The notes beneath the pieces are model-generated. The model did no database searches. It had not been told where the DNA came from and worked only from the letters and a program-made list of their open reading frames with translations. A stretch of 40,000 nucleotides of DNA. Source: Desulfobacterales bacterium (GTDB lineage Bacteria > Desulfobacterota > Desulfobacteria > Desulfobacterales > 4572-123). A program made the position numbers and the translations under genes. The stretch lies in assembly GCA_963667755.2 (NCBI GenBank), contig CAXXLK010000002.1, forward strand, positions 928,118-968,117, given 5' to 3'. This document shows, piece by piece, positions 13,048 to 37,752 of this stretch. The stretch's first letter is position 1. The number at the start of each line of letters is the position of its first letter.

Positions 13048-14523
13048 TTACGAAGATAAGTCAGATCGATTATCTGCCGCGCACCTTTGTAGGTATGCCT
13101 TGAGATCTCTGTCCAGGTCCCTGGAAATCATCATGTCCGGTCGATTTGCAAGGATCTCTTTATAGCGTCGGTTGGCGCGGGTCATGATGCTCTCTTTACC
13201 GTTGGACGCCCAGTTGTCATAGGACTGCCAGCATGAGACCGTGGGAAGCCACTGGCTTCTGAACCGTGCAAAGGTATCTTCATGGGGGAGATAACTGCCG
13301 CCGGGTCCCACTTCTTTTATGACATCCAGGGACAATTCACCATCGGAGGTGTCGACCCCTTCGCAGATACGGATCACCCGGCTCATCATCTCCTCGTCAA
13401 TGATGAATTTTTCATAGGAAATGGTCAAAATGGCATCCAGTACACCAAATACCTGCTCGATCATGTGGCCGCCGGACATCATTCCCATCATCATGTTCTG
13501 CATGGTGTCATACCCGGCCTGGATATCCACCTCCTTGGCGTCAGTCATACCGGCCATAATGCGGGTGGGCACTTTGTAAAAATCAATGGCCATCTGGAGA
13601 CAGGTCGAGTTGATCAAAAATTGTTCCGGGGGGGCATATATGCAAATGGCGGTTCTCATATCGGCAACCGTGGATGCCGGGCAATATACCATGGGCCCGC
13701 CGGGATTGATCAATTGCACCAGGGCATTTCCGGCCAGTACCTCAGCATTTTGCTGAACAATACTGCCAAAAAGGCTCATGGGCGCTGTGATGCCTGCCAG
13801 GGCACATGGCAGAATATAAACCGGCTGATTTCTGCCGGCATATGCAATGATGGTGTCAAGGGTTTCCGTGGCATATTTCAATGGGCTCAAGGGGTTGGTG
13901 CTGACCCCGATACAATAGTTTGTTTCAAGAAATTTTTCACCGAACACCATTTCCACCATATCAAGGGATTCTTTTGCTTTTTGGGCAACGGTACAGCTTC
14001 CGATGATGGGTTTGTCTGTATGTTTGATGGTTTCGTAAATCATGTACAAGGCCCGCTCGGTGTCCGCTACATCATCCGGCGCCACGGGGGTGGCGCCGGT
14101 GAGTTTTACAATGTCGCTGGCCTGGGAGAGTTTCTGAAAATTAGCGTAGTCCTCAAGAAGTCCCCGGCGTTTTCCGCTGTCCATATCTTCACAGAACACG
14201 CATCCCACATTGGGGTGGGGGGCAAAACCATCGCCAATGGTCACCGATTGTGCGTCATTTCTTGCCACGTGGCGATATGTCGTTGGGGCCTGTTCCATGG
14301 CGGCTTCCGCCATGGGGCCTGGAATGAATACGGTTTTCCCGTCCACCCTGGCCCCATGGCGTTTAAAGATTTCAAGGGCCTTTTCATGTTCGAAGATGAT
14401 GCCGCACTGTTCCAAAATTTCGATACTGGCGTCGTGTATCCTGGGCAGGTCGGTATTTTTCACTATTTTGACACGAGGCAGTTTTCTTGTTGCGGAATTA
14501 CAGAAGGTATTGGGTGTAATCAT
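13048..14523 (-). CDS. MttB-superfamily methyltransferase, non-pyrrolysine type (candidate quaternary-amine:corrinoid methyltransferase)
   Basis: Uninterrupted 491-aa ORF, colinear with the two TAG-containing mttB genes in this window. VPTRIMAGMTDAKEVDIQAGYD aligns with LPSFAAGG[TAG]GDSKVVDYQSGHE, placing a Met codon where the paralogs have TAG. An AGGAG RBS lies 8 nt upstream. Confidence 0.85.
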   Translation of the reverse strand: MITPNTFCNSATRKLPRVKIVKNTDLPRIHDASIEILEQCGIIFEHEKALEIFKRHGARVDGKTVFIPGPMAEAAMEQAPTTYRHVARNDAQSVTIGDGFAPHPNVGCVFCEDMDSGKRRGLLEDYANFQKLSQASDIVKLTGATPVAPDDVADTERALYMIYETIKHTDKPIIGSCTVAQKAKESLDMVEMVFGEKFLETNYCIGVSTNPLSPLKYATETLDTIIAYAGRNQPVYILPCALAGITAPMSLFGSIVQQNAEVLAGNALVQLINPGGPMVYCPASTVADMRTAICIYAPPEQFLINSTCLQMAIDFYKVPTRIMAGMTDAKEVDIQAGYDTMQNMMMGMMSGGHMIEQVFGVLDAILTISYEKFIIDEEMMSRVIRICEGVDTSDGELSLDVIKEVGPGGSYLPHEDTFARFRSQWLPTVSCWQSYDNWASNGKESIMTRANRRYKEILANRPDMMISRDLDRDLKAYLQRCAADNRSDLSS

Positions 14524-17981: not shown

Positions 17982-18348
17982 ATTTTCTCCCTTTTTATTA
18001 TTGTTCCAGTGGTCATAATCTAATCCCAACCCCACTAAAAGCATGAATACTACTGTCTTTAAGGGGATTCAAGAAAAAATCGATCAAATTTTTATAAACA
18101 TCCGTATTTCTCAAATCATATTTTTTTAAATATCTGTACGGGATAAAACAATCACCGTCAGGCCACCGGACTTGATACCCACAGATACTTCAGGGCTCGT
18201 TAAAGGTTGACGTTTCCGGGTAACCATGCTAATCCGTTTGGACTATAATTGGGAAAATTGCTGTATATCCATATGGTAAAACTTGTACATGCCTTGATTT
18301 TGAACGAAAACCGTTTTTTCTGGACACACGCAAGTTAAGGGGACAGAT

Positions 18349-18744
18349 ATGAAATTTATGGTATGTTATGACGGTTCGAAGAGAGCGAAAAAGGCCCTTG
18401 AGCTTGCCAGGGAGCACGCAAAAGTCTGGGGTGCTTCATTAGAGGTGGTCAGCTCGATTGAGCGGGAACTGTCGCTGAAACGGTCGTTTATTGAAAAAAA
18501 AGAACAGGATTTAGAAAATGAGGTCAAAGCGGTTTTAAGCGGAAGCGGCATTTCCTATGAAATTGATCTGCTCATCGATACGCTGAGTCCGGAAGAACAA
18601 ATGGTTCGGTTTGCTGAAAAAGAAGCGATCGATCAGATATTTATCGGGATTCAAAAACAATCCAAGGTTGGAAAACTGGTTTTTGGGTCCACCGCCCAGT
18701 ATATGTTATTAAGAGCCCCGTGTCCGGTGGTCACGGTAAAATAA
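18349..18744 (+). CDS. Universal stress protein (UspA family)
   Basis: 131-aa ORF. KFMVCYDGSKRAKKAL and the C-terminal GSTAQYMLLRAPCPVVTV are UspA-domain hallmarks. An AAGGGG RBS is present. Confidence 0.85.
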   Translation: MKFMVCYDGSKRAKKALELAREHAKVWGASLEVVSSIERELSLKRSFIEKKEQDLENEVKAVLSGSGISYEIDLLIDTLSPEEQMVRFAEKEAIDQIFIGIQKQSKVGKLVFGSTAQYMLLRAPCPVVTVK

Positions 18745-18797
18745 TGCAGTGGCAATCCACCGCTCTATTGCCCACAGAATTCTCACAGATTGATCCT

Positions 18798-18822
18798 CTC
18801 GTAAAACGTCGGATTTTTACGA
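18798..18822. terminator. Hairpin between the convergent usp and ABC ATPase genes (possible bidirectional terminator)
   Basis: CTCGTAAAA-cgtcgga-TTTTACGAG forms a perfect 9-bp stem. The stem is A/U-rich and there is no clear trailing U-run on either strand. Confidence 0.3.
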
Positions 18823-18834
18823 GATCGTTACAGA

Positions 18835-20499: not shown

Positions 20500-20528
20500 C
20501 GTTAAGTTACCTCACAGAAGCATTGCTG

Positions 20529-21353
20529 TTAATCTTTCAATCCGCTGGCGATCTTTAAAAACCAGTCGACAATCAGATTGACACCCACCGTCAAAAATGC
20601 AATGGCGCCGGCGGGCCATAACGGTGTCAGAATGCCGAAGGTGATGGCCCCGGCATTCTCCCGAACCATGCCGCCCCAATCCGCTGTGGGCGGCTGGATG
20701 CCAAGCCCCAGAAAACTGAGGGCCGCGATGAATAAAAATACGAAACAGAACCGCAGGCCGAATTCCGCAACCAGCGGCGGCATGGCATTGGGCAGAATTT
20801 CTTTGCGCATGACCCAGATGATGCCCTCTCCGCGAAGCCTCGCCGCTTCAACGAACTCCATGACATTAATATCCATGGCAACGGCCCTTGAGAGACGAAA
20901 CACCCGGGTGGAATCAAGCACCGCGATGACCAATATTAATGCGGGCACGGATGTCCCCACCACGGACAGGGCCATCAAGGCAAAAATAAGCGTTGGAAAC
21001 GCCATCAGGATGTCGACAATACGGCTGATAAACAATTCGGGCCAGCCTCCGATGACCGCCGCGAAAAAGCCTATCAGCGCACCGAAAAAAAACGAAAGAA
21101 GTGTGGTGACAAATGCGATGACAATGGTGTTCCGGGCACCGTACAACAACCGTGTGAACATATCACGCCCCAGGTGGTCCGTACCGAGCAGGTGGTCCGA
21201 ACTCGAAGGCAGCCAGACGTCCCCCACCATTTCCGTTTCAGAATAGGGGGCGATCACCGGAACAAAAATAGCTGCAAAGATATTGATCAGTATCATTGCA
21301 AGACCAATGCGGGCGCTCAGGGGTGATTGTCTCAGCAATTTTAAAAAGCCCAT
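20529..21353 (-). CDS. ABC transporter permease (DppC/OppC-like)
   Basis: 274-aa hydrophobic ORF with LGTDHLGRDMFTRLLYGARN and the EAARLRGEG EAA-loop region. Confidence 0.85.
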   Translation of the reverse strand: MGFLKLLRQSPLSARIGLAMILINIFAAIFVPVIAPYSETEMVGDVWLPSSSDHLLGTDHLGRDMFTRLLYGARNTIVIAFVTTLLSFFFGALIGFFAAVIGGWPELFISRIVDILMAFPTLIFALMALSVVGTSVPALILVIAVLDSTRVFRLSRAVAMDINVMEFVEAARLRGEGIIWVMRKEILPNAMPPLVAEFGLRFCFVFLFIAALSFLGLGIQPPTADWGGMVRENAGAITFGILTPLWPAGAIAFLTVGVNLIVDWFLKIASGLKD

Positions 21354-21366
21354 CGAAGCCTTCTCC

Positions 21367-22329
21367 TTATTTTGATCTTGGATGCAGCAACCTGGGGTTG
21401 CTGAGAATTGACAGTATGTCAGCCAGAAGATTCAGTGAAATATAAACGACGGCAAAAATAAGGCCGCTGGCCTGAACAACGGGGATGTCCCGCTTGGCTA
21501 CCGAGTCCACCAGAAGCTGGCCCAGCCCCGGATAAACAAATACCACCTCAACAATCACGACACCCACCACCAGATAGGCCAGATTAAGGGCAACAACGTT
21601 AATCACCGGTGAAAGGGCGTTTGGAAATGCGTGCACAACAATAACCCGCATCCGTTTCAGCCCCTTTAATCTGGCCATCTCCACATAGGAACTGGCAAGG
21701 ACATTGATGACGGCCGCACGGGTCTGGCGCATCATGTGGGCGGTAACAATAAATGTAAGGGTCAGGCTGGGAAGAATAATGGCATCGATTTTCTGCCAGA
21801 ACGACATCTGCTCGTTGATATTGGAAATACTGGGGAAAATAACCAGTTTCACAGACAGCAGTGCAATGAGAATATAGGCGACGAAGAATTCGGGAAAAGA
21901 GATGGCGCTGAGGGTGGCTGTGGAAATCGCTTTATCAAAGAGGGTGTCGCGATAAAGCGCGGCCAGGAGCCCGAGAATGATGGCAATGGGTATGGATATT
22001 ACCGCCGCCGAGCTGGCTAGAAATATGGTGTTCTCAAATCGCCAGCCGATAAGTTGGGTAATCGGCCGGCCGTTGGCAAGGGAGTTCCCAAAATCTCCCC
22101 TGGCAAAGCTGCCCAGCCAGCTGAAATAACGGACATGGGGGGGAAGGTCTAATTTGAGTTCCTTTCTAAACGCCGCAACGGTTTCAGGCGTTGCCTCCTG
22201 TCCCAGGATCGCTTCCGCCAGATCACCGGGAAGCGCCTCCACGCCAACGAAAATGAGAAGAGAGATGACGATGATCGTCATTAGCCCCAGGGCCATTCGC
22301 TTTGCCACCATTATGATGATGTCATTCAT
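21367..22329 (-). CDS. ABC transporter permease (DppB/OppB-like)
   Basis: I moved the start to the ATG at 22329 (MNDIIIMVAKRMALGLMTIIV...), just downstream of the preceding gene's stop at 22343. It contains the SSYVEMARLKGLK EAA-loop region. Confidence 0.85.
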   Translation of the reverse strand: MNDIIIMVAKRMALGLMTIIVISLLIFVGVEALPGDLAEAILGQEATPETVAAFRKELKLDLPPHVRYFSWLGSFARGDFGNSLANGRPITQLIGWRFENTIFLASSAAVISIPIAIILGLLAALYRDTLFDKAISTATLSAISFPEFFVAYILIALLSVKLVIFPSISNINEQMSFWQKIDAIILPSLTLTFIVTAHMMRQTRAAVINVLASSYVEMARLKGLKRMRVIVVHAFPNALSPVINVVALNLAYLVVGVVIVEVVFVYPGLGQLLVDSVAKRDIPVVQASGLIFAVVYISLNLLADILSILSNPRLLHPRSK

Positions 22330-22342
22330 TTTTTCACCGTTT

Positions 22343-24256
22343 TTAAGATGTTTGTAACACAGATTTCGGTTGATATTTTTTCGGGAGCGGTGTGTTTTCC
22401 TCAAAAGGTATGGCCAGCTTGAAAACACCCTCATCAAGCCGTGAGAAGACCTTTAATTCGCCTTTTTCAAAAATTCGCAACATGGCTTTATTGTGCTCCA
22501 GAATTTCAGCAACAAGCCCCTTCAGACCTCTTTTTTTAGCCAGTTTTATCAACATGCGGTACATGTAGGAGGCAATGCCGAGGCCATTATAGGCCTCATC
22601 GATGAAAAACGCCAGATCGCCGAATTCCGCTTCGTCTATTTTTGCAAAGCGAGCCTCGGCGATGATGGTTTCCTCTTTAGCATCTCCAAGAATGGCAACG
22701 ATAGAGACATCGGTGCTGTAATCAATGTTGACATATGCCTGCATGTCCTGGTGCTTCATGATTGAAATGGGAAAGAAAAACCGGCTTTGGATACCTTTTT
22801 TTGAAAACCGATAAAACAGGTGCCGCATGGCTGCTTCATCCGAAGGTTTGGTAGGCCTGAAACGGACTTTTACCCCCCCCTTAAAGAGATGTTCCCCCAT
22901 GATGTCCAATGGGTAAAATCGGCCTATATTTATGGGATAAGCCTGATCCTTGAAAAGAATTCGTTTCTCTTTTGCGACCCGGATCAATGCCTCTCTGTCA
23001 TCTGGATGGGCGATGTCGATAAGGGATAGTGCCCGTTCTTTGAGGGTGCGCCACTTCAGGTTTGCGATGCCATATTCTGTGACAACCGCATCGATGGATT
23101 CTCTCATATGAAATTGATTGCGCAGGTCTCGAAGCATAGCGACAATATTGGGGGTGCCCCTGTTGTTTCTGCTGGGCAGCCCGACAATTGTCCGCCCCCC
23201 CGCAGAAAGTTCGGCGCCGGTAAAAAGGTCGGCAGACTGCCCCGGGCCTGTTACGAGATTACCCTTGCCCATGGAAAAAGAAATACGCCCCAGCAAATCG
23301 ACTTTGTTGGCCTCCTGTATGACAACAAAGTTGGAATTCCGCCCGATCTGTATCGGGTTTAAGACCTGTTCGATGCTCTGGAATTCCACAACCGGATTAC
23401 GATCCAGCCATTGCAGCAAACGAGGCGTACCCAGCGCATAAGAGGTCACTGATTTTCCCCGGAACACCTCTTTGCGATAATTGGAAACGGCGCCGCTTTT
23501 TACCAGATCCATGAGTGCATCCGTAAAATAGGCTGTATGAATACCCAGATGCTTTTTGGACATCAGGGTCTGGCTCAACGCATCGAACAAGGGGCCTGTA
23601 TGAAAATTGATACAATCGCCGTCCTGTATTATCTGCGCGATATTTGCGGCCACTTTATTGATGACAGGTTTGACGGGATACCGTTTAAAATAAAGTGGCG
23701 GCACCGTGGCTTCAACAAGGAGGTCAAAATCAGAAATAGAAACAATCGTATCACCCAAGGTAAAGGGGATCTGGGTATTGATTTCCCCGACAACCAGGGA
23801 CGCCCGATGCATGGCCTCCCTCGCAATATCGATGGCAACCCCCATAGAGCAGTATCCCGCACTGTCCGGCGGCGTAATCTGAACGAATGACACATCGATG
23901 GGAATCCGGTTGGACTTGATCAGTTCCTGTATCTGGGAAATGCGTCCGGGGATTAAATCAACATTGCCCGCAATAACCGCTTCACTGGAAATCCATGTGG
24001 AAAAGAATGTTTTAAGCCGATATTTCTGGTAATCCAGTTTTTTTAATGAAAAAAAATCACTATGGCTGGACAGCTGAATCAATTCCAGATCATGAAGATT
24101 GGGATAATCAGAGGCAAACAGCTGTTGCGTGAGTGTTCGGGGCTCTGCAACGCCACTTCCCACAAAAATACTCATCCCGGGTTTGATATACGTTAATATT
24201 TCCTCGGGAGGTACCACCCGTTGTCGCCATTGCATGTGATTCTCGTGATCTCCCAT
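22343..24256 (-). CDS. Fusion protein: acetyl-CoA hydrolase/transferase-family domain plus C-terminal GNAT acetyltransferase domain
   Basis: 637-aa ORF. The N-terminal ~430 aa resemble 4-hydroxybutyrate/acetyl-CoA transferases (GMSIFVGSGVAEP...ELIQL...VSFVQITPPDSAGYCSMGV). The C-terminal ~170 aa carry a GNAT core (AFFIDEAYNGLGIASYMYRMLIKLAKKRGLKGL, matching the Q/RxxGxG/A motif). Confidence 0.8.
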   Translation of the reverse strand: MGDHENHMQWRQRVVPPEEILTYIKPGMSIFVGSGVAEPRTLTQQLFASDYPNLHDLELIQLSSHSDFFSLKKLDYQKYRLKTFFSTWISSEAVIAGNVDLIPGRISQIQELIKSNRIPIDVSFVQITPPDSAGYCSMGVAIDIAREAMHRASLVVGEINTQIPFTLGDTIVSISDFDLLVEATVPPLYFKRYPVKPVINKVAANIAQIIQDGDCINFHTGPLFDALSQTLMSKKHLGIHTAYFTDALMDLVKSGAVSNYRKEVFRGKSVTSYALGTPRLLQWLDRNPVVEFQSIEQVLNPIQIGRNSNFVVIQEANKVDLLGRISFSMGKGNLVTGPGQSADLFTGAELSAGGRTIVGLPSRNNRGTPNIVAMLRDLRNQFHMRESIDAVVTEYGIANLKWRTLKERALSLIDIAHPDDREALIRVAKEKRILFKDQAYPINIGRFYPLDIMGEHLFKGGVKVRFRPTKPSDEAAMRHLFYRFSKKGIQSRFFFPISIMKHQDMQAYVNIDYSTDVSIVAILGDAKEETIIAEARFAKIDEAEFGDLAFFIDEAYNGLGIASYMYRMLIKLAKKRGLKGLVAEILEHNKAMLRIFEKGELKVFSRLDEGVFKLAIPFEENTPLPKKYQPKSVLQTS

Positions 24257-24499
24257 GGGGCCTTCATCCGGATTTAGTATGGGTCTAAACAGTTATTTGC
24301 TTGCTGCTGCGCAAAACTCAGCATACACCACTTTCATGTAAAAAAAAGGATAGGGCCTTGACCATCGCTTGGGCCACATTCGCAAAAAGGCTGACGCCTG
24401 AACGCCTACGAAATGAAGGTCTTCGGTCGAAACGATGATCAAAGCCCGGAATCAACAACGTATCAGCACCTTTTGATTTGTCATGAAGAACGCCGAGGT

Positions 24500-26089
24500 T
24501 TATTTGAACCACCATCTTTCAGCGTTGTGTTGCCCATCCGCTTCCATGTGGCCTGAAATGGTGTCGTGGCCGACCTTGTCGGACAGTGCCTCGACGATCT
24601 GGGCGAACATGGGAATGATGGTCCCGCCTTCATCTTTGCAGATCTCCTGCATATCCGCATACATCTGTGCCCGTTTTTTTTCGTCGAGTTCCGCCTTGGC
24701 TTCTACGAGCAGTTTGGTGAATTTTTCATTATCCCAGTGCGCATCGTTCCAGGGTGCGCCGGAGGCATAGGCCACGGAAAACATCATGTCTTCGGTGGGG
24801 CGTCCACTCCAGTAGCACATACAGAACTCTTTCTTTGTCCAGACGTTGCTCCAGTAGCCGTCGGCCGGTTCCCGCACCACATTGACGTTGATGCCTGCTT
24901 TTTTAGCATGCTCCTGAAACAGGATGGCGGCATCGTCGGCACCCGAAAAAGCAGCCTCGGAACTGTGCAGGTTAAATGTGTGGTTTTCCATGCCGGCCTT
25001 TTTCATGTAGAAGCGGGCCTTGTCCGGATCGTAGTGTCGTTGCTTGAGGTTTTTGGCATGATAGCGGTTGATCGGTGCAATGGGGTGATCGTTTCCAACC
25101 TCGCCGTAGCCATTCAGGATTCGTTTCACCATATCATCGCGATTTACGGCATACTTGAGACCCAGACGGACATTATTATCGTCATACGGTTTCATCTTGG
25201 TGTGCATGGGCATGGTGTAGTGGAAGGTAGCGGTCACTGCGCTGATTTCAATGCCCTTTGACCGTTTCAGGAGATGGATGGTTTTCCGTTCACAGCGGTC
25301 CATGAAGTGAATCTGCCCTGTCTTGACGGCGCTGGTTCTGGCATTGACATCGTTGATGGCAAGGGTTTCCACCTTGTCGAAATGAGCCCGACCCGCTTTC
25401 CAGTAGTTTGGGTTTCTTCTGGTGATGGCGGTGACACCCGGTTCCCATTTCTCAAGGATATACCCCCCCGTACCGATCCCTTTTTCAAAGTCCATTCCCT
25501 TTGTGCCGGCCTTGAACACGGATAGATGGTAATCACCCATGATGAACGGAAAATCGGCAAAGCCGGCGTCAAGTTCAAAAATCACGCGATGTTTGCCATC
25601 GGCCTTGATGTTTGTGACCGGTTTCAGATATTCTTTGGCAGCAGACTTAGAGTCTTCTCCCCGATGGTGGTTCATGGTATAGATCACATCTTCTGCATCC
25701 AGAGACTTTCCGTCGTGAAACTCCACGCCCTTGCGCAGGTTGAAGATCCATTTTTTGGCATCCGGCGATGATTCCCAGCTTTCGGCCAGCTCCGGAATGG
25801 GCTGAAGGTTGTGGTCGATCTCCGTCAGGCAGTTTCTCAGTTGCCATTCCACATTGATGTTCCAGCTGGATGTGTGGGTGGCCGGATCCAGTGTGTCGCT
25901 TGTGGATCCGCCGGTCTGCGCCTGTATAAAATGCCCCCCTTTTTTGGGTACTGCCGCCGCTGCCCTGCGCGGCAGTAAGGCCGGGGATATCGCCACTGTC
26001 AACCCTAGGGCCGCCGCCTGGGACAAGAATTGCCTCCTGCTGATTTTGCCTTCCACAAGCAGTTTTTCCAGAAAATTCAATGCGCTCAT
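24500..26089 (-). CDS. ABC transporter substrate-binding protein, family 5 (DppA/OppA-like), Tat signal
   Basis: 529-aa ORF with a twin-arginine leader (SRRQFLSQAAALGLTVAI...AAAA). A family-5 SBP is expected next to Dpp-type permeases. A GAGGAGG RBS is present. Confidence 0.85.
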   Translation of the reverse strand: MSALNFLEKLLVEGKISRRQFLSQAAALGLTVAISPALLPRRAAAAVPKKGGHFIQAQTGGSTSDTLDPATHTSSWNINVEWQLRNCLTEIDHNLQPIPELAESWESSPDAKKWIFNLRKGVEFHDGKSLDAEDVIYTMNHHRGEDSKSAAKEYLKPVTNIKADGKHRVIFELDAGFADFPFIMGDYHLSVFKAGTKGMDFEKGIGTGGYILEKWEPGVTAITRRNPNYWKAGRAHFDKVETLAINDVNARTSAVKTGQIHFMDRCERKTIHLLKRSKGIEISAVTATFHYTMPMHTKMKPYDDNNVRLGLKYAVNRDDMVKRILNGYGEVGNDHPIAPINRYHAKNLKQRHYDPDKARFYMKKAGMENHTFNLHSSEAAFSGADDAAILFQEHAKKAGINVNVVREPADGYWSNVWTKKEFCMCYWSGRPTEDMMFSVAYASGAPWNDAHWDNEKFTKLLVEAKAELDEKKRAQMYADMQEICKDEGGTIIPMFAQIVEALSDKVGHDTISGHMEADGQHNAERWWFK

Positions 26090-26369: not shown

Positions 26370-26954
26370 TCATAGGCGACTGTGCAGTCTGGCCAATAGA
26401 TCGGGCAACCATCCTAATGCCAGCTGTTCGAGGGCTTCCCGGGCGGGCCGTCCGGTAGTGGCCTCCCAGCTCCGCTGGCGGTAGAATTCTGCCGCTGCGG
26501 TATCGACTTCCGAGCGGTTCATACGTTTGCCATGGGTGGGTCTACCTTTGAGCGGTGTCGTAAAAATTTTTCTGCAAGTTTGTCCCTATCCCGGCTAAAG
26601 CCTTCCCGATAATTAAAGGCCCGCATCACATTCACCCGGCGGGCACCGACGGTAAGCAGTTCTTCCAGGGTTACGTTCCACCCGGTCACGGACTGAACGA
26701 GCGTGACATAATCGTCAGGCCCGTACAGCTGCCATGAAGCGCCCCAACAAAACGGGCAGACACAGAGGCTGTCGGCCCGGTTGAATATATCCTGGATCTG
26801 AATTGTATGTCCCGGCTTTAGCGACGCCTGCATCACTGATCAGGAAGACGTTCCTGGATTCCGTTAATGCAGAAATTTCATCTCCTATCTGTTCGACGCG
26901 ATCAACCCCGAAGGAGATGTTGCCAACCCCTGGAAAGGTAATTGGAATCATCAC
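26370..26954 (-). pseudogene. Chimeric relic: N-terminus of an iron-type alcohol dehydrogenase joined to the frameshifted C-terminus of an aldehyde:ferredoxin oxidoreductase
   Basis: 26954-26811 encodes MMIPITFPGVGNISFGVDRVEQIGDEISALTESRNVFLISDAGVAKAG, an Fe-ADH N-terminal pattern. From about 26803 a different frame reads IQIQDIFNRADSLCVCPF...VTGWNVTLEELLTVGARRVNVMRAFNYREGFSRDRDKLAEKFL. After a frameshift near 26556-26570, beside an A5T5 run, it reads TPLKGRPTHGKRMNRSEVDTAAAEFYRQRSWEATTGRPAREALEQLAL, with the stop at 26370-26372. This parallels the C-terminus of the intact AOR at 15081-16844. Confidence 0.65.
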
Positions 26955-27230
26955 AATCCTTTCAAAATAAGCAGGCCGGCCTTTGGCGATTATCCATCCA
27001 GAAACGAGAACTTTTGTTCAAAATCAGGGTATGCACAAGTTTTATCAGAAACAAATGATTGATATTCTACAGCTATTCTTTGATGAACGTGCAAAAAGTA
27101 TTTGGGATGGTTAAGTAGAAATCGTCTATATAAGGCATAGGGATTTACCAGGGGCGAAGGCAACCATATGGTATATCGAGTCTCTGGAAAGTCCCTATAA
27201 CGCAGTAGATGGCGACTTTTTACGACGCCA

Positions 27231-28703
27231 TCATTCTTTGATCCCCAGCTCTTTTTCGGCGCCGTCAACAATGTCACGCAGCTGTTTGAGGACAGCCCCT
27301 GAAAGTTTCGGTGGTTCATATGTTTCAAGAATGTGTCGAACCGCTTCGCCGGCCCGCTCGTATGCATCCTTTGAACCGTTTTCTTCCCAGCGGAATCTCA
27401 TCTGCCGGTTCAGCAGCTTCGGGCTTGTGGTCAGCCGCATGTGCTTGAAGGTGGATTCGTGAGCCAGATAATCCTTGAAAGGGCCGACCTCCTTGATGGT
27501 ATCGATGGACAGGGTTTCGTCATTGACCTCAATGCCGTTTACCGTCCGTTTGATCATACCGGCCACTTCGTTATCCAATACCAGTTGTGCCAGATCAAAG
27601 GTGATACCCATTTCCAGCATTCCCAAGCCGTAAATTACGTTGCACCCTGACAACGCAGGCAAGATACCGGTGATGGTTTTTTCATGGCCGGACTGGTAGT
27701 CAACCACTTTGCTGTCGCCCTATCCACCGGCGGCGAAACTGGGCAACCCATAGTAGCGGGCAAGCCGGGCCACCGCCGCATTGATCATGGCCGTCTCAGG
27801 GGCACCCACCGTTGCCGTGGCATACTTCAGGTCCAGAGGGCAGGTGGAACTGGCATAAATGAACGGCGTCCCTTTTTTAACCAGTTGGCCCAGAACAAGA
27901 CTTGCCAGATTTTCGCTGTTTTGCTGTACCAATGTTCCGGCAATGTGGATGGGGGAAGAGCCGCCGGTCATGGCCATGCCGATACAGTTTAACCCAATGC
28001 CGTTTCGGGCCGCTTCGATAATGATGTCACAATGGTGGGACGACAGCTTCAAGGGGCTGATGGGACAGGTCACAAAGGTCAGAAACGGTCTTTCCCTGAA
28101 TTTATCCATATCCCCGGCGATGGCAGCGCACATTTCAAGAATTTTTCCGCACTGATACCGGTCCACCGGACCCAGCCAGTGATGCTTGGTCGTATTGGTG
28201 AGTGATGCCTCGGCATTGTGCAGTGCCTGCACCCTGGGGTCTTTATCATGGGAAAGCATGCAGCGTTCATAGGTTTCCACATGTTCCAGAGAATCGATGA
28301 GCCTGGCGGCCATCTCGATATCGGCCTTGGTGGTTTTACGATGTTCTCCCGTATAAGGATCGACAAACATGATGCCTTCACCAAAATTGGTGAACGTCAC
28401 CCGGTTGGCTTCCAGAACCACATCGCTCTCCGGTATGCGGCCGTAGGCATGAAACGTAGCCGGCGCCGTCCGGATCGACGCTTCCACCAGATAGGGTGGG
28501 AGGGTAACGACTTTTGTTTTTTCATTCACACTGGCGCCGGCAGCACCGAAGATCTGCCTTGCCTCTTCACTTTCCACAAAAACACCGGTGCATTTCAGGA
28601 TTTCAAGGGAACCCAGGTGTATTTCATGCACTTCGTCGTCGGTGAGTGTGTTTAGACTGAAGCCGCCGCTGGATAATTTCCCGGATTTGGTTGGTCGCTT
28701 CAT
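27231..28703 (-). CDS. mttB: Trimethylamine:corrinoid methyltransferase MttB with in-frame UAG (predicted pyrrolysine), copy 1
   Basis: Track ORFs 27720..28703 and 27231..27707 share one frame and are separated only by TAG at 27720-27722. The read-through sequence is ...YYGLPSFAAGG[TAG]GDSKVVDYQSGHEKT... The total of 490 codons is a typical MttB length. An AGGAGG RBS lies 5 nt upstream of the ATG at 28703. Confidence 0.85.
27720..27722 (-). other. In-frame UAG, candidate pyrrolysine codon (mttB copy 1)
   Basis: The plus strand reads cta and the minus strand reads GGT GGA TAG GGC GAC AGC AAA. The position aligns with the TAG of copy 2 and with a Met codon in the non-Pyl paralog at 13048-14523. 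Confidence 0.85.
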
Positions 28704-28725
28704 TTTTTCCTCCTGTAGAAGTCAT

Positions 28726-30120
28726 TTAACTATTTTTTTCGATGGCGTTCTTGACGGCGGTTAGTATTTGGTCCATCTGTTCTTTAGTGGCGACAAGGGC
28801 CGGCGCAAAGAGCATCATGGTGTTCATACCCGGCAGGCTGGAGTTGGTTCTGCCCACCAGCACGCCCTGGGCGGCCACATCCGCCACCAGTTTACCCATA
28901 AACGCTTCGGAAACAGGCGTTCTGGATGCCTTGTCCGTCACGAACTCCACTCCACAGAAAAGACCTTTGCCGCGTACGTCTCCAACAATGGGAAAATCCA
29001 AAAACGCTTTCAGGCCATTGAGCAGATATTCGCCTACCACCCTGCTGTTTTCCACAAGGTTTTCATCATCAATGATACGGGCCGTCTCAAGACCCGCGGC
29101 CATGGCGCCGGTACACCCGCCATAGGTACTGATATCCCGGAAATAATTCAATCGCTTTTCCGGTGTCCCGGTATCGAGGAACAGGTTAAAAATGTCATCG
29201 CTTATGGCGGTAACCGATAACGGTTCATAGCAACTGGCAACGCCCTTGGCCATAGTCACCATGTCCGGCGTTACATCATAATGTTCATGGCCCCAGAATT
29301 TTCCGGTGCGGCCGAACCCGCAGACCACCTCGTCAAAGATCAGGTAGGCCCCGTATTTTTTGCAGATTTGCTGGAGTATGGGATAGTATTCCTGGACGGG
29401 TACCAGGATGCCGCCGCCGGCAACAATGGGTTCCACGATCACCCCCCCCACGGTGTCCGGCCCCTCTTTTAGAATGACATCTTCCAGGGCGCGGGCGCAT
29501 TCGATGTTACAATCCGGATAGGTCTTGCCAAAGGCGCACCGGTAGCAAAGCGGGTGGGGAAACTCGGCAAACCCTTCAGCCATGGGTCCGAAATGCGCTT
29601 TTCGTTCACTCTGTCCCCCGGCACTCAATGCCCCGATGGTGGTACCGTGATAGTCCCGGTCCCGGTAGATCACTTTGAATTTACCTTTACGGTCATCGTT
29701 GATTTTCGCAAGCTGCCGGATGATCTTAAAGGCCTTCTCATTGGCTTCGGAACCGGAATTTGAAAAAAATATTTTCTTTTGATGGGGAAGCTTCTCTGCG
29801 AGTTTTTTAGCAAATTTAATGGCGGGGACTGTGCCGACCGCACCGGCGTAGTAGCACAGTTTTGTCAACTGTTCAGCCACCGCCTCGGCAATACTTCTGC
29901 GACCGTAACCCACCACCACGCCCCACACACCACCGGAGACTGCATCAAGATATTCCCGGCCCCGGATATCTTTTACCACAAGGCCGTTGCCTTCCACGAT
30001 AACCATCTGTTCCTTGTCTGCAAAGACACTATGGTCCTTGAGATGATGCCATAAAAAATCTTTGTCCGCTGCAACCATTTCTTCCACATCGTAATCAAGC
30101 CAGTTTGTTTTCGGATCCAT
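28726..30120 (-). CDS. Class-III (omega) aminotransferase, PLP-dependent
   Basis: 464-aa ORF with FFSNSGSEANEKAFK, LIFDEVVCGFGRTGK and DMVTMAKGV (PLP-lysine region). Its stop lies 22 nt upstream of the mttB copy 1 start. An AAGGAG RBS is present. Confidence 0.85.
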   Translation of the reverse strand: MDPKTNWLDYDVEEMVAADKDFLWHHLKDHSVFADKEQMVIVEGNGLVVKDIRGREYLDAVSGGVWGVVVGYGRRSIAEAVAEQLTKLCYYAGAVGTVPAIKFAKKLAEKLPHQKKIFFSNSGSEANEKAFKIIRQLAKINDDRKGKFKVIYRDRDYHGTTIGALSAGGQSERKAHFGPMAEGFAEFPHPLCYRCAFGKTYPDCNIECARALEDVILKEGPDTVGGVIVEPIVAGGGILVPVQEYYPILQQICKKYGAYLIFDEVVCGFGRTGKFWGHEHYDVTPDMVTMAKGVASCYEPLSVTAISDDIFNLFLDTGTPEKRLNYFRDISTYGGCTGAMAAGLETARIIDDENLVENSRVVGEYLLNGLKAFLDFPIVGDVRGKGLFCGVEFVTDKASRTPVSEAFMGKLVADVAAQGVLVGRTNSSLPGMNTMMLFAPALVATKEQMDQILTAVKNAIEKNS

Positions 30121-30240
30121 ATTTCAATCTCCTTTTCTAATACAAAAATTAGCAGGCAATACGAGAAAAACAGTAGCGCCCATAACTCTTTTTGTTCAGA
30201 CACAGGCGCATATCGCTTACCCCATGCTTACCTGTTGTGA

Positions 30241-31815
30241 TTATTTCGCATCCGGCATGGAAGAGATGGTCCCATCCCAGGTGTCCACGAGGCCGCAGGC
30301 TTCCTGGTCTTCGGGAAACCAGGTGGCGGTGACGCATTTGGATTCGGTAAAGAAACTGATACCATCTTTGCCCATCACATGCAGATCTCCAAAAAAGGAT
30401 TGTTTGTGACCTGTAAAACCGAAAATACCCAGTGGTACCGGGATGCCGACATTGACACCCACCATGCCGGCATCGGTCCGTTTGGAAAATTCCCGCGCGT
30501 AATGGCCGTTCTGGGTATAAATGACCGAACCGTTGGCAAAACGGCTGCTGTTCATCAAGGCCAGTCCTTCCTCAAAATTTTGGACCCGTTTGACGCAGAG
30601 TACCGGGCCAAAGACTTCCTCCCAGCCGATGGTCATTTCCGGTGTCACATGGTCAAAGATGCAGGGCGCCAGATAAAAACCGCCCTCATGACCCGCTACC
30701 TTGGGATTACGGCCGTCCACGATCAGTTCGGCGCCCTCTTCGATTCCTTTTTCGATCCAGTCGGTGATAAACTTCAGATGGCCCGCGTTCAAGATGGGCC
30801 CCATGCCGGTGTCCGGGTCATAGGCAGGGCCAAGGTTCATTTCGGCTACAAATTTTTTCAGCAGCGCAATCAGTTCATCCGCAATGCACGCTTCCACAAC
30901 GATCACCGGGCAGGCCATACACCGGGCACCGGCACAGCCGCAATAGGCATTGATAATACCCCTGGCGGTTCGCTCCAGTTTTGCATCCCGCATGACCAGC
31001 GCATGGTTTTTGGCTTCGGTGAGGGCCTGCACGCGCTTACCGTTGGCAGCGGCGGTGGCATAGATGTGTTTGCCGGTTTTGGTGGATCCCACAAAAGACA
31101 CCCCTGCAATATCGGGATGGCTAAGGAGAATCTCGGCCTCATTACGGCCTGCGGTGACCAGATTGAGGACCCCCTCGGGCAGTCCGGCCTCATGCCAGAG
31201 TTCCAGGAGCCGCATGGACGTCTGGGGCACAAAACTGGCGGCTTTCAGCACCATGGTATTGCCCGTGGCGATACACAGCGGTGCCATCCAGCCATGGGGA
31301 ATCATGGCGGGGAAATTCCAGGGTGCAATACCGGCGAAAACACCGACGGGGTGTCTGTAGAGAACCGTGTCATATCCGGCGGAAGCGTTCATCAGGGATT
31401 CTCCCTTCATCAAATGGGGGGTCCCGCAGGCAAATTCGACCACTTCGTTGACTTTCAGTACATCGCCCATGCTTTCCCGCCAGTTTTTACCTTCTTCCTG
31501 GCACAACAGGTGGGTCAGTTCTTCCAGGTGTTCATCCACCAGCGCTTTCATACGATACAAAACCTGAACCCGTTTACTGACCGGGGTGTCGGCCCAGGCC
31601 GGAAACGCCGCTTTAGCGGAATGAATGGCCGATTCGACCTCTTCGGATGTGCACTGGGGCGCCATGGCGATCACTTCGCCGGTGGACGGATTATAGCAAT
31701 CCATGTATTTTGTTGCTTTTGATTCAAGCCACTGCCCGTTGACGCAGTATTTCAGTTTTTTGACCGAATTTTTTGAAGACGACCCACTCTCCATAAAATA
31801 TCGTGATTTTTGCAA
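30241..31815 (-). CDS. mmsA: CoA-acylating methylmalonate/malonate-semialdehyde dehydrogenase family aldehyde dehydrogenase
   Basis: 524-aa ORF with [32 protein letters not shown], and EAKNH in place of the ELGGK general-base segment, as in MmsA/IolA-type enzymes. The [10 protein letters not shown] catalytic-Cys region is present. The track start at 31815 is a TTG lying 10 nt after AGGAG; the alternative ATG is at 31794. Confidence 0.8.
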   Translation of the reverse strand: [524 protein letters not shown]

Positions 31816-31904
31816 AATGTTATATCTCCTTTATTTTTACGGTTTTTGTTAAATTATTAGTTGATCTATACGGAAGAATGTAAAAAATATTTTTGAATTT
31901 TTTT

Positions 31905-31986: not shown

Positions 31987-32244
31987 AAAGATACTGTTTT
32001 AGTCATATAGCCTTGATAACTACGATGTCAAGTAAAAATAACCGTCCTTTTTACTTTTTCAGTTTATTATTATTTTATTTTCTACGTTTTAGCTTTTTTT
32101 TGTTTGAATTTTTATAATAATAGTGATAATTGAATTCTATTCTACTCCATAATAGGCATTTCAAACTAAACTGCGCGTCAACTTGAAACATTTCCATGAT
32201 GGGAGAATATCTCCATCTAAGTGTTAAAAAAAAGAGGCATTTTA

Positions 32245-32739
32245 ATGGAAAATCGAAAATTAAAGAAAAAAAACAAAACGCTGGACTTGGTCGATTGTGA
32301 AATTATTAATCTGCTGCAAAAGGACGGTAGGATCTCAAATACCGATATTGCAAAAAAAATGAGTATTTCTGAAGGAACCGTTCGCACCCGCCTGAATCGG
32401 TTGATTAAAAGCGAAATCATTCAGATTGTCGCTGTCAGCAACCCCATCAAACTCGGCTTTAAAATCGTGGGGCAAATCAGGATTCAGATAGATGTCGGCA
32501 AGATGGAGAATATTATAACAAAACTGAAAAAATTAAAAGCCCTATGGTTTATCGTCCAGACCACCGGGGGAACCACCGGTCTTGAAGCCGAATTTAACGT
32601 CAAGTCTCTGGATGAACTCAATACGTTGATTTTTGAAAACATCAACAAGATAGACGGCGTCATCAAAACCGATGTCTCCCTGATAATGGATTTTATCAAG
32701 CGACGATATGACTGGGGTACGGTGATGGATGAAAAATAA
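32245..32739 (+). CDS. Lrp/AsnC-family transcriptional regulator
   Basis: HTH segment DCEIINLLQKDGRISNTDIAKKMSISEGTVRTRLNRL plus a C-terminal RAM-like domain. I prefer the ATG at 32245 (AGAGG 7 nt upstream) over the GTG at 32221 used by the track. Confidence 0.85.
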   Translation: MENRKLKKKNKTLDLVDCEIINLLQKDGRISNTDIAKKMSISEGTVRTRLNRLIKSEIIQIVAVSNPIKLGFKIVGQIRIQIDVGKMENIITKLKKLKALWFIVQTTGGTTGLEAEFNVKSLDELNTLIFENINKIDGVIKTDVSLIMDFIKRRYDWGTVMDEK

Positions 32740-32765: not shown

Positions 32766-34157
32766 ATGGGAAAAATTAAAACCCGAATGGGCGATGGCTT
32801 CAAGGTCGAGATGACCGAAAGCGAAGTCCGAAAAGCCCTGGAGGAAGGGACTCAGGATGCGGCAGAGCGTGCCCGGGTCGAGCCATTGTCGCCGGATGAT
32901 CTCCAACGGATTTTTGAGATTTTTACCTGTCCTTATCGAATCGTTGGCGTTGATGAGGGCAATGAGGTGGTTCTTACCTACGACAGTCTTAACACCAAAA
33001 TCAAACGGGCACAGATTTCAGCCAGCAAGATCCAGTCCCTTCAGATTTGTGAAAGGGCCCTGGGGGCAGACACCCTGGAGCTTGCCCATATCGACTACAG
33101 TTATAAACCGGTAAAACCGATCATTCCCTTTGAAAAACCGATAATGGAGCAGGCCGTCCTGATCACAATCCCGGCATTGCTCTATGGCGCCATGCCTAAC
33201 CTGGGGCTCTACAGCCAGCCGGACGGCCCATGTCCTAATCCGGCGGATCTTCTTCCCAATGGAAAAATCGCTGAAGCCAGGGCATCCTATGAAGAGGCTG
33301 CCGAATACGCCATAGCGGATATGGTTTACGTGGGTAGCGAGATGTATGAATCCGGCGCCGACGGCATCAATTTTGATACCACGGCTGCAGCCGGGGATGC
33401 GGAATTTTATGCAACTCTCAAAGCGGTGGAGATTCTCAGAAAAAAATATCCCGCCATGGGCATCCAGATGGGTATGGCCGCGGAATTCGTATTGGGAATG
33501 CACGGAGAGATTGAATATAACGGTGTCCGTCTGGCCGGGCTCTACCCTCACCAGCAAGTCAAACTCGCCGAAGAAGCCGGGGTAAACATTTTTGGACCGG
33601 CCGTCAATATCGTCACCAATGAATCGTTGCCCTGGAACATTGCCCGTTCCGTTACCTGGACCAAAGCCTGCACGGATGTTGCAAAGATTCCGGTACACGC
33701 ATGCCTGGGAATGGGTGTCGGCGGTGTCCCCCTGGCGCTTACACCGCCCATAGATGCCCTTTCACGGGCATCAAAGGCCCATGTAGAGATCTGCAGGCTG
33801 GACGGGTTGTAGGTGGGTGTCGGAGACCCGTGCGGGATGCACGCTGCACATGCAATAGTATCGGGACTGGGTGGCATACGCACTGCCGGAGATCTGGTAG
33901 CACGAATGCAACTAAATGGCTCGATGAAAATTGATGCAGCAAAAAAACATGTCGCGGATAAGTTGAAAATTTCTGTCGCGGATATTGCGGACCCGGTGGT
34001 GATGAACGAACTCCGGGAAGATCTGGATATCGGCCGCGTCAATGAGGCCCCCGGTGTGGCCAAGGGTATTGATGCGAAGTTTAGGATTGCCAGGCTTCTG
34101 GACATTAACATCAACTCGGTGAACATATTCAAGGAGAAAATAGAACGCGACATATGA
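32766..34157 (+). CDS. mtbB: Dimethylamine:corrinoid methyltransferase MtbB with in-frame UAG (predicted pyrrolysine)
   Basis: Track ORFs 32766..33812 and 33813..34157 are contiguous in one frame and separated only by TAG at 33810-33812: ...SKAHVEICRLDGL[TAG]VGVGDPCGMHAAHAIVSGLGGIRTAGDLVARMQ... It is colinear, as far as I recall, with Methanosarcina MtbB (HIDYSxKPVKP, LxYGAMPNxGLY, ASGADGxNFDTTxAAGD, LAGLxPHQQ, DGx-Pyl-xGVGDPxGM, GDLVARM). The TAG is codon 349 of 463. An AAGGAGG RBS is present. Confidence 0.85.
33810..33812 (+). other. In-frame UAG, candidate pyrrolysine codon (mtbB)
   Basis: GAC GGG TTG TAG GTG GGT GTC GGA. Conserved MtbB sequence runs on both sides in the same frame. Confidence 0.85.
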
Positions 34158-34302: not shown

Positions 34303-34955
34303 ATGACGATAATTGAAGTACGCTTTGAAGAAGCCAAAAAGCCATGGTAGCGTGTGACGCTGAAAATGCCTCGCTGGTGGCGACACAGGGTTTAGCAGAT
34401 GGGATTGACCCTGTTGAATTTTTGAACAAGGGATTCATTCCCGGAATAAATGAGGTCGGAGGGCTTTTCGGTAAAGGCCGGTTGTTTCTTCCCGAATTGA
34501 GTATCGCCGCAGAAGCCATGCGACAGGTAACCGATATTATTAATGGTGCACTTGGAGCCGCCGGAACGATTTCAAAAAAGGCAGGGAAAATTCTCATGGC
34601 CACTGTTCAGGGTGATGTTCATGATATCGGTAAAACCATTGTGGTGTCACTTTTCAAAGCCAACGGATTTGAGGTGCTGGATTTGGGGCGAGATATTTCC
34701 AACGAAAAAATTATTGAAGAAGCTGTGCGGTTTGAAGCCGATATTATCGGTACCAGGGCGCTTCTCACCACTACTATGCCCGCCCAATAAAAACTTGAAA
34801 AAGAACTGAAGAAAGCCGGCCTGAAGGGAAAAATCAAGACAATTGTTGGTGGGGCGCCCGTAACACAGAGATGGGCCCAGCGCATCGGCGCAGATGCTTA
34901 CGCCCGGGGCGCATCTGATGGTGTTCAGAAAGCAAAGCTGATGATAGGGCTATGA
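34303..34955 (+). pseudogene. Corrinoid (B12-binding) protein gene downstream of mtbB, apparently inactivated (MtbC-like)
   Basis: Cap and B12 domains are recognisable (GDVHDIGKT = DxHxxG; ALLTTT; IVGGAPV). There are three lesions. (1) The RBS-proximal start, ATG at 34303 (MTIIEVRFEEAKK), is out of frame with the body starting at 34344, consistent with loss of one A in the A5 run at 34336-34340. (2) An in-frame TAA at 34788-34790 aligns with a Lys of the paralog at 35143-35772. (3) The SxL Ser is replaced by Arg (GTRALL). The conserved C-terminus KLEKELKKAGLKGKIKTIVGGAPVTQRWAQRIGADAYA continues in frame to the TGA at 34953-34955. Confidence 0.7.
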
Positions 34956-35142: not shown

Positions 35143-35772
35143 CTATACCAGAGATTTGGCCAGCTTGGTGGCTGAACCGGCATCTGCGGCATATCCGTCG
35201 GCACCGATTTCATCGGCATATTTCTGGTTTACCGGGGCACCGCCGATGATGACCTTGACCTTGTCGCGGTATCCGGCTTCAACCAGAGCGTCGATGGTTG
35301 TTTTCATCATACCCATGGTAGTGGTGAGCAGGGCAGAGATGGCAACTATGGTGGCGCCCTGGTCTTTTACGGCGGCCACAAAAGTTTCCGGGGCTACGTC
35401 AACACCCAGGTTGATCACCTCAAAACCGGCGCTTTCCAGCATCATGGCCACCAGGTTTTTACCGATGTCATGCAGGTCGCCCTTGGCCGTACCCATGGCA
35501 ACTTTGCCGGCGGCTTTGGCATCTTCTACGGACAGCAGGGGTTTAAGTATTTCCACTGCTGCGGCCATGGCCTTGGCGGCCATGAGCACTTCGGGGATAA
35601 ACATATCGCCGTTCTGCATTTTTTCGCCGACAATATCCATGCCTTTGATCAATCCGTCATTGAGAATATCTTTTGCTTCCATTCCCTCGTTCACGGCGGC
35701 TTGCACAAGCGTTTTCAATGTTGCTGCATCGCCGGCTATCAGTGTGTTCGAAAGTGCGTTTAAATCTGCCAT
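35143..35772 (-). CDS. mttC: Methylamine-type corrinoid protein (MttC-like, B12-binding)
   Basis: 209-aa ORF with a helical cap domain plus GDLHDIGKN (DxHxxG), SALLTTT (SxL) and IIGGAPV (GG). It lies 48 nt downstream of mttB copy 2 and has an AAGGAG RBS. It terminates in TAG (35143-35145). The symbol is assigned by context only. Confidence 0.8.
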   Translation of the reverse strand: MADLNALSNTLIAGDAATLKTLVQAAVNEGMEAKDILNDGLIKGMDIVGEKMQNGDMFIPEVLMAAKAMAAAVEILKPLLSVEDAKAAGKVAMGTAKGDLHDIGKNLVAMMLESAGFEVINLGVDVAPETFVAAVKDQGATIVAISALLTTTMGMMKTTIDALVEAGYRDKVKVIIGGAPVNQKYADEIGADGYAADAGSATKLAKSLV

Positions 35773-35820: not shown

Positions 35821-37314
35821 TTATTTCTGGGAAACCGTGGCCCGTTTTTCTTTTGCTTGGGCCTCGGCATTTTCAAATATTGTGTTTAACTGGGCCTGAA
35901 TGTTTTCAGGCAATGCTTCTACCTTGTGGCTGGCGATGATGTGGGCTGCCCTGGCATAGGCTTTTTCCACAACATCCTTTGATCCATCTGCAATCCAGCC
36001 GTCACGGCTTTTTCTGTCAAAAAGGTCTCCCTGGGACTGCCGCCGCATATTTTTAAAGGTATGCGGATGGGTGATGAATTCACCGCCGTGGCCCACCTCT
36101 TTGATGACGTCAAAAGCAATGGCTTCATCGGTAATGGTAAATCCTTCGACTGCCTTCATGATCATTCTCAGCATTTCATTGTGTAAAACCGCCTGGGCGT
36201 AATCCCAGGTCAAACCGCTGTCAAGCATCCCGAGGCCGTAAATCAGGTTGGCACCTGCCAACGCCGTTAAAGTGGCCGTTAAGGTATATTCATGGGCTGC
36301 CTGCGCATCGGGCATTTTGCTGTCCACCTATCCACCGGCGACCCAGGAGGGGAGCCGGTAAAACTTGGCCAATTTGGCGATGGCAGCGCTGAACATCCCC
36401 ATTTCCGGAGTCCCCATGGCCGCCAGTCCGGTTTTAAGGTCCATGATGCTGGTGGAACTGCCGTATACCATGTGATGGCCCTTGCGGACAGCCTGTCCCA
36501 GGACAATCATGCTTAAATTTTCAGCATTATGGGTGACAAGACTGCTGGCCAGGTTGATGCAGGTGGTGCCACCCGCCAGTCCAAGGGGGTTGATTTTCAG
36601 GGGGACGCCCAGTCGACAGGCTTCAATCAGAACGTCGCAGGCATCTTTTGAATGCAGCAACGGGCTGATGGGATCACAGGTTGTGGAGAAAATCGGTCTT
36701 TCACGGAATTTGTCATCACCGCCGGCCACAACGGAGGCCATCTTAAAACAGGTCCTCAGATTTTCAACCGAGTTGATGCCGATATAGCCATGTTTGGTGC
36801 AGGAATTCAAAAAACTTTTAATGTTGTAAAGACAGCAGATATCCTGGTCCATATCGCAGGGGGTTAACGGTCTTTCAAACACAACGACCTGGTCCAGTGC
36901 ATCCAGAAATAACGTGGCGTCATCAACGTCAGCTTTTGTGGGGGTTCTTAATTTTCTGGTTTTGGGGTCGATCATCATGGGGGCTTCGCCAAAATTGACA
37001 AATCCCGACCGACCGTTTTCACAGACATAATCCTTTTCAGGATCACGGGCGCAAGCCTTAAAAGTGGAAGGGCAGGACCTGATGGCATCTTCAACCAGAT
37101 GGGCTGGAATTTTGACTATTTTGGTTCTATTATTGACAATACAACCAATTCCGTCAAAAATTTCAAGGGCCTGGGAGCTTTCCACTTTGACTCCCATTTC
37201 CCAGAGAATTTCCAGAGTAGCCAGATGAATTTTTTCCAATTCGTCATCGGAAAACATGTTCAGACCGATACCACTGGTCAGAACGGTTCCCGGCTGCAAA
37301 TTTCTTACCGCCAT
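35821..37314 (-). CDS. mttB: Trimethylamine:corrinoid methyltransferase MttB with in-frame UAG (predicted pyrrolysine), copy 2
   Basis: Track ORFs 36328..37314 and 35821..36327 are contiguous in one frame and separated only by TAG at 36328-36330: ...FYRLPSWVAGG[TAG]VDSKMPDAQAAHEYT... The gene is 497 codons and colinear with copy 1 throughout. Confidence 0.85.
36328..36330 (-). other. In-frame UAG, candidate pyrrolysine codon (mttB copy 2)
   Basis: The minus strand reads GGT GGA TAG GTG GAC AGC AAA. This is the same GG-TAG-xDSK context as copy 1. Confidence 0.85.
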
Positions 37315-37714
37315 AATTGGTTTCCTTCATTTTCATAGAAAGACGATAAAATTTCGGTTTTTTACCGGAGGCTGCCTATATATGGTATGTTTTTTCCGGT
37401 AATGAAAGACTCTCCTTGTGCGTTGCAACAGCTTTTAATTATAGATATTTTTTTGTTGAATCCCTCCTTAATTTATTAAATAAAAATTCAAAATAATGTA
37501 CCATTTGATCGCCTATAAACCCTTAAGGGCGCGGTATAATGACTCTGGGTCAAAAAGTCAATCATAATCATCACAAAAGGGTGTATTTTTATGATTCAGT
37601 GTACAAAAATACCCCCTTGATGGCATCGGCCGCCTGCATCAGTTCAGGTAAAAAGAGCTGGCTCCTGCCAAAAAGATCGCTTATTTAGTGTCCCTATCGG
37701 GGATGGTTGAAACC

Positions 37715-37732
37715 CTTCGCCTTTAGGCGAAG
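37715..37732 (+). repeat. Hairpin upstream of the IS200-like tnpA start (candidate left-end subterminal hairpin)
   Basis: CTTCGCC-ttta-GGCGAAG forms a perfect 7-bp stem 21 nt upstream of the ATG at 37753. Confidence 0.4.
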
Positions 37733-37752
37733 AAAAATATATAATTGTCGCT

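Follow-up and report, generated by a model that had tools for sequence, protein, structure and literature searches.

Bacterial mttB genes that encode pyrrolysine (Pyl) have long been known. In the 40 kb (40,000 nucleotides) of Desulfobacterales DNA analysed here, called the window, the list of open reading frames gives two adjoining MttB-like ORFs on the minus strand, 27720..28703 (327 aa) and 27231..27707 (158 aa), and the question is whether these constitute one gene, mttB copy 1, in which a UAG codon is read as pyrrolysine, or whether translation ends at this codon.

The reading frame of mttB copy 1 and its orthologs

According to the original prediction the two ORFs are in the same frame with a lone TAG at 27720-27722 between them, and translation of 28703..27231 bears this out. 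The gene (27231..28703, minus strand) is a frame of 490 codons including one UAG, and the single internal stop is the TAG at 27722..27720, which is codon 328 and the presumptive pyrrolysine codon from the reading of the sequence and from the alignments. The codon context is ggt gga TAG ggc gac and the flanking peptide LPSFAAGG*GDSKVVDYQSGHE, where the asterisk is the stop; on re-reading, the coordinates and peptide strings predicted for this gene, for a second copy and for an uninterrupted paralog were all correct. The two halves match positions 31-337 and 345-499 of the 500 positions in Pfam MTTB, and are thus adjacent parts of one domain. With an X in place of the stop the frame scores 669.3 bits over model positions 1-469 of NCBIfam TIGR02369 (cutoff 525; Pfam PF06253), an equivalog model for the Pyl-containing trimethylamine:corrinoid methyltransferase, and the read-through form of copy 2 also passes this model, in agreement with the claim that conserved MttB sequence runs through the TAG.

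The best PDB match of copy 1 is MttB of Methanosarcina barkeri (7xcl, 7xcm), with a phmmer score of 367.9 bits over residues 11-485. A comparison of the TAG column with the Pyl column of this protein had been proposed as a check, and in the phmmer alignment the X of copy 1 is placed opposite the X (Pyl334) of 7xcl, with a MAFFT alignment of 18 sequences in agreement. Identity to M. barkeri MttB is 41% for copy 1 and 37% for copy 2; the two copies are 43% identical to each other, and copy 1 has 26% identity with the non-Pyl paralog. Gly110 and Tyr364, which are reported to be 100% conserved in Pyl-MttBs (PMC9842639), are kept in copies 1 and 2 and in all 14 complete orthologs of the MAFFT alignment, and copy 1 also keeps Met249 and Gly372. 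Tyr364 is located downstream of the TAG and is present in every ortholog; the exchange Y364F lowers the Vmax of MttB from 48 to 1.7 turnovers per minute, about 28-fold (PMC9842639). The region 27231..28703 is by these comparisons confirmed as a real mttB gene with its sole in-frame TAG at the pyrrolysine position.

A scan of a genome collection gave 15 related loci, all from Desulfobacterales or delta-proteobacterial MAGs, and 14 of them contain the full gene. In each of these 14 orthologs (66-99% identity) the first stop is a TAG at codon 328, followed by 160-168 open codons. The species representative HOU_bin.0076 has 99% identity, and after it comes a MAG with the label Desulfobacula sp. 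at 84%. The window itself matches the 6,107,701-base contig ena:ERZ21831104:ctg97548c, hereafter the conspecific 6.1 Mb genome, with 99.7% identity along 19,880 bases. The column holds TAG in 16 of 16 aligned Pyl-type sequences, never TAA or TGA; as predicted, copy 2 has its TAG (36328-36330) at the same position and the uninterrupted paralog (13048-14523) has a methionine there in the MAFFT alignment. Among the 26 genes of the window whose terminators were counted, TAA ends 16, TGA 7 and TAG 3, and the column keeps TAG specifically although this is the rarest terminator. The same codon in the same column throughout is more than chance, which agrees with the earlier argument that a random nonsense mutation would not recur in this way. 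Extra tandem paralogs in loci L008 and L015 carry TAG at the same column as well.

Tandem arrays in which Pyl-type genes with a TAG are mixed with uninterrupted mttB paralogs are found in L008 (3955-9400), L013 (1432-4400) and L015 (8141-11500). The TAG-ended genes of the window are mttC (35143-35772), 2684-3958 and 5789-7240, all on the minus strand, where pyrrolysine read-through would lengthen the products by 41, 31 and 2 residues respectively, up to the following stop.

Other methyltransferase genes and the surroundings of copy 1

The second Pyl-type trimethylamine methyltransferase gene, mttB copy 2, is located at 35821..37314 on the minus strand, and scores 620.4 bits against TIGR02369; its TAG (36330..36328) is flanked as VAGG*VDSK. 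Directly downstream is mttC (35143..35772, minus strand), which ends with a TAG and encodes the cognate corrinoid protein of 209 aa with B12-binding and B12-binding_2 domains; it is about 7.4 kb from copy 1, and is called as a gene also in L001/L017. A third Pyl-type gene, which is missing from the original prediction, is mtbB for a dimethylamine methyltransferase (32766..34157, plus strand) with an in-frame TAG at 33810-33812. Its ORF 32766..33812 covers positions 3-353 of the 463 in Pfam Dimeth_Pyl (PF09505) and ends at the TAG, after which the frame goes on to 34157, and when read through the stop it matches TIGR02368 in one stretch over residues 6-458 with 512.4 bits (cutoff 369.1). A gene for an AsnC/Lrp-type regulator (32221..32739, plus strand; Pfam HTH_24, HTH_AsnC-type and AsnC_trans_reg) is located directly upstream of mtbB, and an mtbC-like corrinoid gene (34344..34955, plus strand) follows, so that asnC-mtbB-mtbC converges on mttB2-mttC of the opposite strand, with copy 1 about 4 kb from mtbB. 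The mtbC-like gene is broken by an in-frame nonsense codon, TAA at 34788-34790, in the window, in L017 and in the conspecific 6.1 Mb genome, and L018, from a related strain, has CAA (Gln) at this position and an intact gene of 217 aa. The dimethylamine branch may consequently be disabled in this strain by the broken mtbC-like gene.

The uninterrupted MttB-superfamily paralog (13048..14523, minus strand) has Met at the position of Pyl334 and Glu at that of Tyr364, and its score against TIGR02369, 308 bits, is below the cutoff of 525. It adjoins genes for a 4Fe-4S protein and a full-length aldehyde:ferredoxin oxidoreductase (AFOR; 15081-16844), with no corrinoid gene nearby. In L014 the mttB1 ortholog is followed downstream, after about 1.9 kb, by an ortholog of this paralog (13351-14790; 76% identity).

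Copy 1 is preceded by genes for an aldehyde dehydrogenase (30241-31815, minus strand; Pfam Aldedh) and a class-III aminotransferase (28726-30120, minus strand; Pfam Aminotran_3). These two (28726..31815) are co-oriented with copy 1 and directly upstream of it, with a gap of 22 nt, and no corrinoid gene adjoins copy 1. The neighbours differ widely among the orthologs, and a conserved neighbourhood of copy 1 is therefore rejected. A scan for promoters and terminators gave nothing above chance. Exact-protein look-ups of the aminotransferase, the AFOR and a DUF2058 protein gave no match, which is explained by the window being a few residues off the stored assemblies. Just downstream of copy 1 there is a fragment of an AFOR C-terminal domain (26519-26954, minus strand), a pseudogene remnant.

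With this setting it might be asked if the clade of copy 1 is a Pyl-dependent methyltransferase for another tertiary amine, tied to amine and aldehyde catabolism. The clade keeps its TAG in 14 Desulfobacterales MAGs and without exception carries Glu at the position of Thr111, and copy 1 is located behind the aldehyde dehydrogenase and the omega-type aminotransferase genes and lacks a corrinoid gene of its own. The score against the equivalog model and the retained Gly110 and Tyr364 argue for trimethylamine over another amine as the substrate, and another substrate appears unlikely.

Some further features of the window were noted. At 37597-38900 a gene for an IS200-type Y1 transposase (37711-38010 and 38596-38859) is split by the remnant of a DDE transposase (37896-38579). 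The match between the window and the conspecific 6.1 Mb genome ends at 37597, and a HAD hydrolase gene is found there instead. In L002, the species-representative MAG, positions 11943-19187 correspond to 5765-13008 of the window and follow directly after a block equal to 26816-31904 of the window, and the region 13008-24600 has no match within L002; this layout points to a rearrangement or deletion at the strain level or to a misassembled MAG. A 556-aa ORF at 3983-5653 (minus strand), between genes for an acyl-CoA dehydrogenase and an FGGY kinase, has no match in Pfam or NCBIfam. Downstream of copy 1, within a cluster for an ABC peptide-type transporter, a gene (22343-24256, minus strand) encodes a 637-aa acetyl-CoA hydrolase/transferase fused to a C-terminal GNAT acetyltransferase domain.

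Pyrrolysine machinery and probable decoding of the UAG codon

There is no tRNA gene and no pyl gene in the 40 kb window, and of the 15 related mttB loci 14 have neither pyl genes nor the tRNA within 10 kb. The exception is L005 (71% MttB identity), where pylB, pylC, pylD and pylSn are located about 6 kb from the mttB-mttC pair. On the 6.1 Mb contig about 8.6 kb beyond mttB copy 2, on the upstream side, likewise contain no pyl genes. When a protein collection was searched with PylD of L005 the 6.1 Mb contig was not among the 120 representatives listed, and the cluster members gave the PylD protein P0126. The pyl locus found, L020 (ena:ERZ21831104:ctg97548c 888,583-909,416), is on the same conspecific contig as the mttB match, with about 4.6 Mb between the pyl cluster and the mttB locus. 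The gene order is pylT(CUA)-pylSc-pylB-pylC-pylD-pylSn, and the products score above the model cutoffs: 336 bits for PylSc (cutoff 178), 474 for PylB (348), 392 for PylC (248), 251 for PylD (150) and 132 for PylSn (51). After pylSn there is a gene for a methyltetrahydrofolate:corrinoid methyltransferase (346 bits, cutoff 259), an arrangement that is the same in L005. A tRNA-Pyl with the anticodon CUA was detected by ARAGORN and its minimum-energy fold is a cloverleaf; Rfam, including its generic tRNA model, gave no match to this region at E <= 0.01. In the tRNA (L020 6252-6325) the acceptor and D stems are separated by a single base only, and the variable region is 2 nt long. A gene for an acyl-CoA thioesterase (4HBT) is inserted between pylSc and pylB (L020 7302-7748). 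A second assembly, L019, has the same pyl cluster.

The species therefore carries the complete pyl machinery, as shown from conspecific assemblies rather than from the window's own genome. The original prediction had named the absence of pylT and pylS from the genome as evidence against it; both are present in the conspecific 6.1 Mb genome, so at the species level this does not refute the reading. The UAG of mttB copy 1 is in our judgement very probably decoded as pyrrolysine, to judge from the alignments, the retained TAG and the selection on the sequence after it, the other Pyl-type genes of the window and the pyl cluster. What counts against this is that neither the window nor the surroundings of most related loci have a pyl gene, that the pyl cluster comes from conspecific assemblies, that copy 1 has no adjacent corrinoid gene and is flanked by the aldehyde dehydrogenase and aminotransferase genes and the decayed AFOR fragment, that there are signs of local decay (the nonsense TAA in mtbC and the IS remnants) and that TAG ends 3 of 26 genes.

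The same signs of decay, together with the AFOR fragment just downstream, and the window without pyl genes would fit a relic or pseudogene, in which an ancestral Pyl TAG now only terminates translation, so that a shortened product of 327 aa is made and the rest stays untranslated. Against this, the 162 codons after the TAG contain neither stop nor frameshift, and selection on this part matches that on the N-terminal part: relative to copy 1, dN/dS (Nei-Gojobori) ranges from 0.05 to 0.14 upstream of the TAG and from 0.05 to 0.18 downstream, with synonymous sites saturated in most pairs and usable values after the TAG of 0.054 (L002) and 0.11 (L014). Such low values are those of purifying selection, indicating that the part of mttB after the TAG is translated. 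The catalytic Tyr364 beyond the TAG is also retained in every ortholog, and the species has a complete pyl cluster, so that a relic is very improbable.

Even less probable is a split gene, where polypeptides of 327 aa and 158 aa, the latter started at the GTG at 27707, would form an active enzyme without pyrrolysine. The GTG is four codons past the TAG and gene callers do give two ORFs, but the stop is invariably TAG in the 16 sequences aligned, with no TAA or TGA among them. The residues G/V-D-S-K right after the TAG, ahead of the GTG, are conserved, the species has the Pyl machinery, and in the solved MttB catalysis requires Pyl at exactly this position (PMC9842639). That a sequencing or assembly error made a false stop has next to no likelihood: related long-read assemblies do have indel artefacts (mtbB of L018, for example, is fragmented), but the identical TAG recurs in L001/L017, L002 and L018, three further assemblies from the species or a near relative, and in 12 more distant complete orthologs, which excludes such an error.

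Rfam models of the PYLIS RNA match at all three Pyl-type TAG codons of the window, and every match begins at the T of the TAG. PYLIS_3 (RF02510, gathering threshold 38) matches at copy 1 (27623..27722, minus strand) with 60.4 bits and at copy 2 (36231-36330, minus strand) with 80.1 bits, and PYLIS_2 (RF02509, gathering threshold 36) at mtbB (33810-33909, plus strand) with 68.3 bits. Compared with shuffled sequences the 100 nt after the TAGs have fold z-scores of +0.94 for copy 1 and -0.01 and +0.25 for the other two, which is no signal of stability, and the alifold consensus has a covariation term as small as -0.64 kcal/mol. A GC/AU swap is seen in one short hairpin, in L006, L007, L010, L011 and L012 alone, and may go back to a single event shared by these five. 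The folding statistics thus give no support to PYLIS as a functional RNA structure, and since the sequences fold no better than shuffled ones the matches are treated as coding conservation, which they probably reflect.

Proposed pathway and comparison with known systems

Insertion of pyrrolysine, the substrate used and the further route of the methyl group are inferred from the sequence. The product of copy 1 should be a trimethylamine:corrinoid methyltransferase of full length (about 54 kDa), and a dedicated amber-suppressor tRNA-Pyl would insert pyrrolysine at the UAG, codon 328. This tRNA would be charged by the split PylSc/PylSn synthetase, and the pyrrolysine made by PylBCD. In MttB of M. 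barkeri the Pyl imine binds and activates trimethylamine, and the methyl group is passed to the Co(I) of the corrinoid protein (PMC9842639). Here MttB would transfer a methyl group from trimethylamine to the MttC encoded beside copy 2, the pterin-binding methyltransferase encoded beside pylSn would pass it on from MttC to tetrahydrofolate, and the methyl group would then be oxidized. Some termination at the UAG is expected beside read-through, giving a 327-aa fragment as in other Pyl organisms. For marine Desulfobacterales this scheme from trimethylamine to tetrahydrofolate is already in the literature as a proposal (PMC8318568).

For annotation, the ORF pairs of 327+158, 328+168 and 348+114 aa should be corrected to three single Pyl-containing methylamine methyltransferases. 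The organism, a marine bacterium of the sulfate-reducer type, is likely a bacterial consumer of trimethylamine in sediment, in competition with methylotrophic methanogens, a role already proposed for marine Desulfobacterales. With it a further uncultured species, whose 6.1 Mb genome is closed, joins the bacterial users of the 22nd amino acid.

The substrates of MttB-superfamily members without Pyl are quaternary amines, and Tyr364 is absent from these proteins. The paralog 13048-14523 groups with these proteins (MtgB of Desulfitobacterium hafniense, PDB 2QNE/9YCE, and MtpB, MtcB and MtyB), in contrast to copy 1, whose UAG stands in the Pyl column and whose score is above the Pyl-MttB cutoff. 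With M. barkeri MttB (PDB 7XCL/7XCM/7XCN) copy 1 shares the fold family, a full-length match and the UAG/Pyl in the same column. The two systems differ in that Thr111 is replaced by Glu in copies 1 and 2 and in all Desulfobacterales orthologs, that copy 2 has Leu for Met249, and Lys or Leu stands for Glu225, and that the host is bacterial, with tetrahydrofolate rather than coenzyme M as the presumable methyl acceptor.

The closest published systems belong to marine Desulfobacterales, whose genomes each contain several copies of Pyl-mttB together with a Pyl-mtbB, a corrinoid gene nearby and, in the same region, non-Pyl MttB paralogs (PMC8318568, PMC1976440). In the 'Deltaproteobacteria-bbl' genomes of Kivenson et al. 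2021 a MetH-family methyltransferase was proposed for the second step (PMC8318568). The present organism belongs to the same order as Deltaproteobacteria-bbl (PMC8318568) and the delta-1 symbiont of Olavius algarvensis (PMC1976440), and all the listed features are found here too. It is a different uncultured species (GTDB representative HOU_bin.0076), with a genome of about 6.1 Mb and a window GC content of 51%; the published genomes are smaller, at about 2.5-2.8 Mb, and have 41% GC (PMC8318568). Unlike in these, the pyl cluster is megabases away from the mttB locus and mtbC carries a nonsense mutation. The locus thus adds to a kind already described in marine Desulfobacterales and does not change the understanding of the system, from which it differs in local details: the distant pyl cluster, the amine/aldehyde context without a corrinoid gene, Glu in place of Thr111, and the knocked-out mtbC.
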